NCBI GenBank assembly: GCA_964016885.1 | Contig: OZ024744.1 | Span: 42,408,001 to 42,472,000, forward strand | Source of the DNA: Eledone cirrhosa | Taxonomy: Eukaryota | Direction: 5' to 3' | DNA length: 64,000 nucleotides | In this document: piece by piece, positions 61,201-62,557 of the stretch | Layout of the letters: each line of letters starts with the position of its first letter | How positions within the stretch are numbered: position 1 is the first letter of the stretch | Program-made: the position numbers and the translations under genes | The notes under the pieces: generated by a model | What the model was told of the DNA's origin: nothing | Seen by the model: the letters and a program-made list of their open reading frames with translations, nothing else | Database searches by the model: none

Positions 61201-61276
61201 CTCCAACTAATTAGTTTCTGTAAGGGGATAAATACAGTTATGTAATACTGTAGAGAAGCCTTACGTCATCAGGGAG
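61201..61276 (-). ncRNA. Type I hammerhead ribozyme with extended stem II
   Basis: Same motif, 529 nt from the previous copy; inner hairpin tacagt/actgta. Confidence 0.8.
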
Positions 61277-61777
61277 TCTATTCTCAGCTAAGCCACCAGG
61301 CAATGCGAGGACACTGATGACGTAAGGCTTCTCTACAGTATTACATAACTGTATTTATCCCCTTACAGAAAGTAATTAGTTGGAGTGAAATTTTAGTAAG
61401 TAAGTCAATTTTCATAACTTTCTTATTTACGTCTTTCATATATATATATATATATATATATATATATATATATATATATATATATACATACATACATACA
61501 TACATACATATATATATACATATATATATACTGTATATATACATATATATATATACATATATACATATATATATATATATATATATATATATATATATAT
61601 ATATATATATATATATATATATATATATATATATATATATATATATATATATATATATGAAAGACGTAAATAAGAAAGTTATGAAAATTGACTTACTTAC
61701 TAAAATATATATATAAGAGACGTAAAATAAGAAAATTTAAAAACATTTTTTTTTAAATTAACTTACTAAAATTTTCA

Positions 61778-61857
61778 CTCCAACTAATTAGTTTCTGCAA
61801 TGGGATAAAGACAGTTACGTAATGAACTGTTGAGAATTTCATTGCGTCATCAGGGAG
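61778..61857 (-). ncRNA. Type I hammerhead ribozyme (subfamily 2, inverted arm)
   Basis: ctcc-CTGATGA-c-gcaatg...cattgc-a-GAAA-ctaattag-TT-ggag. Confidence 0.8.
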
Positions 61858-62477
61858 GTCTATTCTCAACTAAGTCTCCAGGCAATGCGCGGACACTGGG
61901 GACTCATATAAAAATAATAATAATTCGGTAAATGGAACAGCTATCGGGGACTGGATCCCAAGCACTGAAAATCTCGCTGCCACTGGTCAAATGGCCGATT
62001 CTAAAGAATCAATCACGTGACACTAAGAGTGGGATGGTAAGATGACAGACGCCTACTAACACACCAAAATTTTAGTAGTGGTTTTGGCAGGTTTGCTCGA
62101 CAAATCAGTGATTTGGAGATAAATATAGATAATTTAATATATTTACTAACAAATGCGCACATTAGCGTACATCTGTGCGCATTTGTTAGTAAATATATTA
62201 AATTATCTATATTTATCTCCAAATCACTGATTTGTCGAGCAAACCTGCCAAAACCACTACTAAATTTTTGGTGTGTTAGTAGGCGTCTGTCATCTTACCA
62301 TCCCACTCTTAGTGTCACGTGATTGATTCTTTAGAATCGGCCATTTGACCAGTGGCAGCGAGATTTTCAGTGCTTGGAATCCAGTCCCCGATAGCTGTTC
62401 CATTTACCGAATTATTATTATTTTTATATGAGTCCCCAGTGTCCGCGCATTGCCTGGAGACTTAGCTGAGAATAGAC

Positions 62478-62557
62478 CTCCCTGATGACGCAATGAAATT
62501 CTCAACAGTTCATTACGTAACTGTCTTTGTCCCATTGCAGAAACTAATTAGTTGGAG
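62478..62557 (+). ncRNA. Type I hammerhead ribozyme (subfamily 2)
   Basis: ctcc-CTGATGA-c-gcaatg...cattgc-a-GAAA-ctaattag-TT-ggag. Confidence 0.82.

Follow-up and report, generated by a model that had tools for sequence, protein, structure and literature searches.

The hammerheads of Hydra-clade Penelope-like elements (PLEs) and of the element PLE-X1_cBra are type I ribozymes with a mismatch at positions 10.1/11.1, U.U or U.C in Hydra-clade elements and C.A together with six pairs in stem II in PLE-X1_cBra, and carry palindromic stems III of 9–10 nt near the 3' end of elements that target (TA)n (Craig et al., 2021, File S2, PMC8557442). Minimal PLE hammerheads feature a short helix I and a larger helix II, with an unpaired nucleotide after A9 and a palindrome at stem III for which a dimer model was put forward; the metazoan ones cleave weakly even as dimers, and no tertiary contact is recognised in the consulted parts of that report (Cervera and de la Pena, 2014, PMC4209133). 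Metazoan non-LTR retrozymes, proposed as non-autonomous PLE derivatives, consist of tandem units that are low in GC, encode no protein and contain a type I hammerhead (PMC7229834; 10.64898/2026.07.22.740005). Lastly, a pseudoknot between stems I and II has been described in about 40% of hammerheads, covering all three types, and speeds cleavage 20- to more than 100-fold (Perreault et al., 2011, PMC3088659).

The repeat analysed here, family A, shares the sequence and architectural features listed above for PLE and retrozyme hammerheads, and departs from each system in identifiable ways. Hydra-clade elements encode RT-EN, whereas the family-A unit encodes nothing, and their loops 2, as listed in the consulted parts of the source, are 3–10 nt long with no inner hairpin and no pseudoknot marked (PMC8557442). 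The minimal PLE consensus, CUGANGAH G..C GAAA, has no extra 3' purine and a vestigial helix III, whereas stem III of family A is a 3-bp stem with a palindromic tetraloop (PMC4209133). Compared with retrozymes of 150–450 bp, the family-A unit is longer (530–570 bp), occurs mostly as short tandems with inversions and tails, and has a long two-part stem II and a predicted pseudoknot in place of loop-loop contacts (PMC7229834). The pseudoknotted hammerheads described by Perreault et al. (2011, PMC3088659) are mostly microbial or phage examples, whereas in family A the pairing is predicted to involve an internal loop, and the hammerhead belongs to a repeat and carries a palindrome of the dimer type.

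The window, a 64,000-nt stretch of an Eledone cirrhosa contig (OZ024744.1), contains five copies of the hammerhead, one of them broken (Table 1). They are not independent, as they derive from two insertions, each with an inverted arm; the arms of insertion 2 are identical at 401 of 426 columns. Copy 1, where two private changes weaken the inner hairpin, lies beyond the range of the first-pass annotation; it shares its strand with copy 2, 529 bp away. Every motif named in that annotation is present, including the two double changes that separate stem II of subfamily 1 (GTAAGG/CCTTAC) from that of subfamily 2 and the inner hairpin of both subfamilies (TACAGT/ACTGTA and ACAGTT/AACTGT, the latter located beyond the internal loop in copy 5). 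The reported conservation of stem I and the palindrome holds outside copy 3, in which the inversion junction has removed the 5' strand of stem I and C15.2 has changed to G. The flanks do diverge, as stated, but only moderately, with 66 of 80 columns identical in the core plus stems and 144 of 212 upstream. The earlier description did not mention the probable pseudoknot, the tandem element bearing the motif or the link to the Hydra clade.

Table 1. Hammerhead-bearing insertions of the window and their component features (window coordinates).
Feature	Position	Strand	Remarks
Insertion 1 (subfamily 1)	60505..61439	.	about 1.5 tandem units plus inverted arm, (TA)n on both sides
Insertion 1, tandem part	61316 to about 60505	-	period 529 bp, tail at end
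Insertion 1, inverted arm	61314-61439	+	5'-truncated
Hammerhead copy 1	60672..60756, C3 60743	-	downstream tandem partner of copy 2
Hammerhead copy 2	61201..61285, C3 61272	-	intact; GAGAA strand 61281-61285 and UUCUC partner 61253-61257 both present
Hammerhead copy 3 (broken)	61314..61385, C3 61314	+	begins at inversion junction
Short 3'-end fragment of subfamily-1 unit	61660..61706	-	flanked by (TA)n runs
Insertion 2 (subfamily 2)	61714..62742	.	near-complete units, two in number, meeting head to head at about 62160; tail (about 62625-62742) on + arm, - arm ending without tail
Hammerhead copy 4	61778..61868, C3 61853	-	intact
Hammerhead copy 5	62478..62557, C3 62482	+	full motif; predicted cut after 62553
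Copy 5, stem I	CTCC 62478-62481 / GGAG 62554-62557	+	
Copy 5, core CTGATGA	62482-62488	+	
Copy 5, C and A at 10.1/11.1	62489, 62539	+	
Copy 5, 6-bp helix of stem II	GCAATG 62490-62495 / CATTGC 62533-62538	+	
Copy 5, GAAA	62540-62543	+	
Copy 5, palindromic stem III	62542-62553	+	ends in GUU
UGAGAAU, 5' strand of predicted pseudoknot	62467..62473	+	alternative partner: U-rich stretch 3' of stem I
AUUCUCA, 3' strand of predicted pseudoknot	62498..62504	+	stem II internal loop; 7 Watson-Crick pairs
Putative internal promoter	62316..62432	+	CACGTG 62316-62321, TATA-like stretch 62424-62432
GTAAGT word	62569..62574	+	conserved between subfamilies, about 15 nt past the cut site

A genome-wide search for the exact pattern CTGATGA-N36..64-GAAACTAATTAGTT returned 9,070 matches (4,934+4,136), and its reversed control none (0+0). 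The unit to which these hammerheads belong is a non-coding tandem repeat with one type I hammerhead per unit, a GC content of 36%, within the retrozyme limit of <45%, and a longest ORF of 33–44 aa, so that the RT plus GIY-YIG ORF of autonomous PLEs is absent from it. In 60 loci fetched by similarity, which were the best-scoring or first-listed among the genome matches, copies of the unit again form partial tandems and show 5' truncation and inversion. Downstream of the palindrome, 297 copies could be followed: 97 reach a microsatellite at 40–95 nt and 89 at 140–215 nt, defining two preferred 3' ends, the longer often on one arm only, while 103 run on and 8 end elsewhere. These two ends match the PLE tail (PMC8557442; PMC11167929). 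A microsatellite is touched by 147 of 154 insertion blocks (a further 23 at locus edges being set aside). Partial tandems, 5' truncation with inversion, a tail at one end and, as in the Hydra clade, the targeting of (TA)n or microsatellites are thus all found, and the unit is a non-autonomous PLE-type repeat, close to non-LTR retrozymes. The repeat is also present in two sequencing runs of unknown kind, and a scan of metagenomes for the motif gave 0 matches.

The hammerhead assignment is based on a type I core (CUGANGA, GAAA and an NUH site with A15.1-U16.1) and on three helices, open at stem I, that show covariation; stem III does not vary within family A and differs from one family to another. 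No hammerhead was detected by Rfam at gathering score in the window, nor at E<=10 in 58300-62800; Rfam models thus miss these motifs, and surveys likely undercount them. The miRNA-like Rfam matches in the window correspond to inverted repeats and microsatellites. With only two founders, the window by itself affords no covariation test, but the genomic copies supply one. Clustering of 301 distinct copies yielded 21 clusters of at least three members, holding 226 copies and leaving 75 outside, and the resulting 20 or so subfamilies have evolved as whole units. Across 23 representatives, the 6-bp helix has A-U in 10, U-A in 9, C-G in 2 and G-C in 2 as its second pair, and G-C in 13, U-A in 7 and other combinations in 3 as its fifth. 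The covariation score of stem II was reached by none of 500 shuffles, which ignore relatedness, and its pairing amounts to 90%, against 33–58% in slid controls (alignments A2 and A3 each include a one-base junk row without paired cells). A tree was built for 27 of 31 rows using only sequence that lies outside the ribozyme, and on it the second pair has undergone at least three independent double changes and the fifth pair at least two. The pairs of the inner hairpin also covary. Selection on RNA structure, which the first-pass annotation had put forward together with a check in a larger alignment, is therefore well supported, despite folding energies that do not exceed those of shuffled sequences (z-scores of -0.35 to -1.31 for the four intact copies, non-significant). 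All catalytic core letters are kept across families with wholly different helices; the pattern searches select for these letters, whereas the DNA-similarity searches do not.

The Watson-Crick pair that canonically occupies 10.1/11.1 is absent from family A, which has C.A or A.A instead. Of the 9,070 matches, 39 lack the A that precedes GAAA, all scattered point mutants, and 437 lack the C after CTGATGA; in a hand count of the first 100 of the latter listed, 67 have A, 30 T and 3 G, the A marking true lineages and the T scattered CpG decay. Family B presents C.A, U.G, A.G or A.A, and family C, its young homologue, has G-C without any indel, which places the C and A of family A at 10.1/11.1, as originally proposed. 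Other families show U.U or A.G followed by C-G, and families D and H continue with C-G. For these reasons, a reading derived from minimal PLE hammerheads (PMC4209133), with the C as a bulge after A9, an intact G10.1-C11.1 pair and an A inserted before G12, was dropped as the main one; the bulge and mismatch readings describe the same letters and are separable by structure only. A specific C.A wobble is compatible with the U.G lineage, but not with A.A, A.G or U.U. No lineage with U-A or C-G was seen among the few founders sampled in families A and B, while U-A or A-U does occur in other families. An extra purine precedes GAAA in all lineages, unlike the 2014 minimal PLE consensus, although one of the 56 rows in Fig. 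S3 of that work reads AGAAA (PMC4209133). U10.1.U11.1 is tolerated, and hammerheads carrying U.U cleave (PMC3088659; PMC7229834). With A.A lineages in family A, U.G, A.G, U.U and G-C in related families and C.A itself in print (PMC8557442), the notion of C.A as a specific or new feature was not upheld: the mismatch is neither fixed nor new, having already been published for PLE hammerheads, and 10.1/11.1 is best described, from the lineages compared, as a free mismatch ahead of a 6-bp helix, with no apparent C.A speciality.

The explanation that we consider probable is that of a pseudoknotted type I hammerhead in a protein-free repeat mobilised by the reverse transcriptase and endonuclease that it would borrow from Hydra-clade PLEs. 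Tandem or read-through transcripts would hold two hammerheads. In a single copy, the core would be trapped by pairing of CUGAU with AUUAG of the palindrome, whereas pairing of two copies via the 12-nt palindrome would release both cores. A pseudoknot of 5–7 bp joining the segment just before stem I to the internal loop of stem II would then dock helices I and II, and cleavage after GUU would release a unit-length RNA to be circularised and copied into (TA)n sites.

The pseudoknot is suggested by a GAGAA strand just 5' of stem I that is complementary to UUCUC, which lies on the 5' side of the internal loop in stem II. The complementarity extends to seven pairs in copy 5, and at least five Watson-Crick pairs can form in all 18 correctly anchored family-A rows (of the 26 rows in this test, 3 mis-anchored and 1 mutated were set aside). 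In a lineage of 424 exact matches both strands have switched, to GGAAAA and UUUUCY, and none of the 28 copies examined retains UUCUC; within family A, the pseudoknot thus rests on one double-change event. Five other families show 5–7 pairs in the same place with other letters, such as UGAGAAA/UUUCUCA, AUGGAAA/UUUCCAU and UGAGUU/AACUCA, so that the complementarity is found in 6 of the 15 hammerhead families examined (A, B, C, D, E and I) and is absent from the other nine; the autonomous family H lacks it. In an alignment of 11 rows from families A–D, in which the family-A rows are partly misaligned, four of the seven pairs change on both sides, and single-family shuffle values range from under 0.001 to 0.14 for windows chosen after seeing the data. 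A GAGAA/UUCUC pseudoknot appears likely. There is a smaller but real chance that the hammerhead is active without it, in which case GAGAA would lengthen helix I through a helix with the U-rich stretch downstream of the cut and UUCUC would be kept for another reason. The energy model prefers this partner, minimum-energy folds pairing CUGAGAAU with AUUUUAG, and the extended helix I reaches 91% pairing and shows one double change, again in the GGAAA lineage; yet it needs two conserved G.U pairs, whereas the loop II partner is fully Watson-Crick, GAGAA-type strands pair at only 3–5 nt with UUUCC-type loops, and family B lacks a U-rich 3' partner but maintains a 7-bp loop II match. The two pairings of the GAGAA strand may also alternate. 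No report of a pseudoknotted hammerhead with a long stem II was found in the literature searched, a scope that does not extend to the work of Lunse et al., who reportedly deal with dimer-cleaving PLE hammerheads and may describe similar variants.

For the predicted pseudoknotted, mobile hammerhead, cleavage as a dimer draws modest support from computed folds. The best monomer fold pairs five of the seven core letters in 19 of 22 usable rows, and in those inspected the partner of the core is the palindrome. Reaching the active state would cost a monomer 2.5–8.7 kcal/mol and a dimer 0–3.9 kcal/mol per ribozyme; for copy 5, the active dimer is placed at -49.4 kcal/mol, whereas the trapped monomers come to 2 x -23.0. 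These dimer energies are nearest-neighbour estimates obtained with an artificial linker and no pseudoknot term. In most rows the active monomer costs only 2.5 kcal/mol, so that a dimer may be unnecessary, and within the window only copies 1 and 2 could pair in a single transcript. Of the earlier suggestion that cleavage would proceed as in minimal PLE hammerheads, the connection to PLEs and the suitability of the palindrome for dimerisation stand, but the motif is not minimal in the 2014 sense.

Somewhat less probable than an active hammerhead without the pseudoknot is a fold acting as a recognition or packaging signal for a PLE protein, with poor or no cleavage and a 10.1/11.1 mismatch that damps activity. 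Metazoan PLE hammerheads are weak even as dimers (PMC4209133), and in the one PLE reconstituted, an anole element, cleavage was dispensable for insertion in vitro, catalytic mutants leaving insertion unimpaired and no RNA ends mapping to the cut site in the consulted parts of the study (PMC11167929). The 5' ends of genomic family-A copies, a noisy test, likewise show no pile-up at the cut site, with three points within 2 nt. Against a signal of this kind stands the retention of every catalytic letter across families with wholly different helices; moreover, U.U at the base of helix II does not prevent cleavage of an axolotl retrozyme, which cuts more as a dimer (PMC7229834).

Mobilisation by Hydra-clade PLEs, the other component of the favoured explanation, is likely on two grounds, a shared hammerhead style and direct joins. 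An abundant autonomous PLE with the DKT, CxCX5C and CxxC/CxH motifs that mark the Hydra clade has a terminal hammerhead shortly before (TA)n; in 11 of 15 copies this shows A.G at 10.1/11.1 together with an internal loop and a near-palindrome of some length, but it has no pseudoknot. Among 96 non-microsatellite flanks of family-A blocks, five match Hydra-type ORFs, one matches another PLE type, with a TA run between, and none matches three LINE-type probes; one further Hydra-type join occurs in locus L330. The four joins inspected are direct and on the same strand, and involve ORF pieces of different Hydra-type families broken at different points. Template switching during insertion is the likely cause of such joins, although they may also arise by nesting. 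It is very improbable that the unit is instead the solo pseudo-LTR of an unsampled autonomous PLE rather than a self-standing retrozyme. Only best-scoring or first-listed loci were sampled and PLE copies are mostly 5'-truncated, but no ORF-bearing element with the family-A unit as pLTR was encountered among those loci, units adjoin one another in tandem without an ORF, the ORF pieces beside them share neither family nor break point, and about 20 subfamilies have evolved as whole units. Scarcely credible, and largely refuted by the covariation data, is a neutral relic whose covariation was inherited from two founders and whose motif is decaying: individual copies do decay (39 of 9,070 at 11.1, with scattered CpG changes) and folding z-scores are non-significant, but at least five independent double changes lie on short branches and one position has gone through four pair types.

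Another abundant PLE, typified by the window ORF at 17560 (whose clade label we presume), is disfavoured as a partner, since it has a different short hammerhead-like motif and a different 3' end. Short minimal-hammerhead-like motifs follow two PLE ORF ends in the window (about 19230-19275 and about 42715-42760); elsewhere this PLE family is represented by full ORFs of about 1,160 aa, and a first look gave 28,490 candidates for it. Related fragments at 62918-63230 and 39132-39428 resemble what we take to be the N-terminus of yet another PLE ORF, and a Pfam search of four PLE-like window fragments returned nothing. Many decayed LINE-type ORFs are also seen (4080-16128, 20953-22527, 36676-38700 and 43348-54540), RVT_1 being identified by Pfam in 36676-38700, the sole LINE-type stretch checked. 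An inverted-plus-direct repeat around a long (TA)n run (58950-59240, 59810-60180) has a PLE-like layout, with no hammerhead seen.

The genome is very rich in hammerhead families. A second family in the window, at 58452-58520 (+) and about 55305-55375 (-), the latter an inverted copy upstream, has A-U at 10.1/11.1, a long stem II and the palindrome ATGCGCAT; the + copy lies downstream of a Hydra-type endonuclease ORF (56039-57049) and of 219–226 bp tandem repeats, and the family recurs in other loci. Family C (L010:2284-2767 and L230-L259) forms 483-bp tandem arrays, 99% identical and with up to five units seen, and is probably the most recently active member. Family B (L180:4965-5085 and L200-L229) is an older 480-bp unit with the palindrome CCGCGG and a GUA site, in which an upstream hairpin would hide a second UUCUC, apart from its 7-bp pseudoknot complementarity. 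At least ten more families, many of them mismatched at the base of stem II, were met by chance in fetched flanks, at L010:715-850 (-), L011:946 (-), L266:2801 and 3282 (-), L072:2418, L094:2756 (-), L074:2666, L080:827 (-) and L185:837. The CACGTG and TATA-like stretch of the family-A unit may be parts of an internal promoter, and its GTAAGT word resembles what we take to be a splice donor. A splice-donor-like word (GTAAGT, GTAGGT or GGTAA) occurs about 5–20 nt past the cut site in families A, B, C, H and I (window 62569-62578 and homologous places). PLE 5' UTRs can hold introns (PMC8557442).

As judged from sequence and its covariation, the hammerhead of family A is a real and selected motif in the style of Hydra-clade PLEs, set in a large retrozyme-like family and predicted to cleave. 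More tentatively, at least six retrozyme families may combine a fixed-length mismatch spacer at 10.1/11.1, a two-part stem II, a covarying pseudoknot locking its internal loop to the segment before stem I, and a palindrome that keeps the monomer off and the dimer on, giving a fast, dimer-gated ribozyme of the PLE type; this combined design was not found in the literature searched, although the mismatch itself is known. As to the role of hammerheads in PLEs, whose metazoan examples cut poorly when assayed and had no recognised tertiary contact, a pseudoknot maintained through compensatory changes in several families would demonstrate selection for fast catalysis. The variants occurring naturally at 10.1/11.1 (G-C, C.A, A.A, U.G, A.G and U.U) constitute a ready-made set of constructs for questions on how this position and dimer pairing tune cutting and, if the proposed design is correct, the contrast between the young G-C family and the mismatch families would provide a natural series relating cleavage rate to retrotransposition. 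Lastly, Hydra-type ORFs joined directly to the units suggest a driver of an animal retrozyme that can be put to the test.
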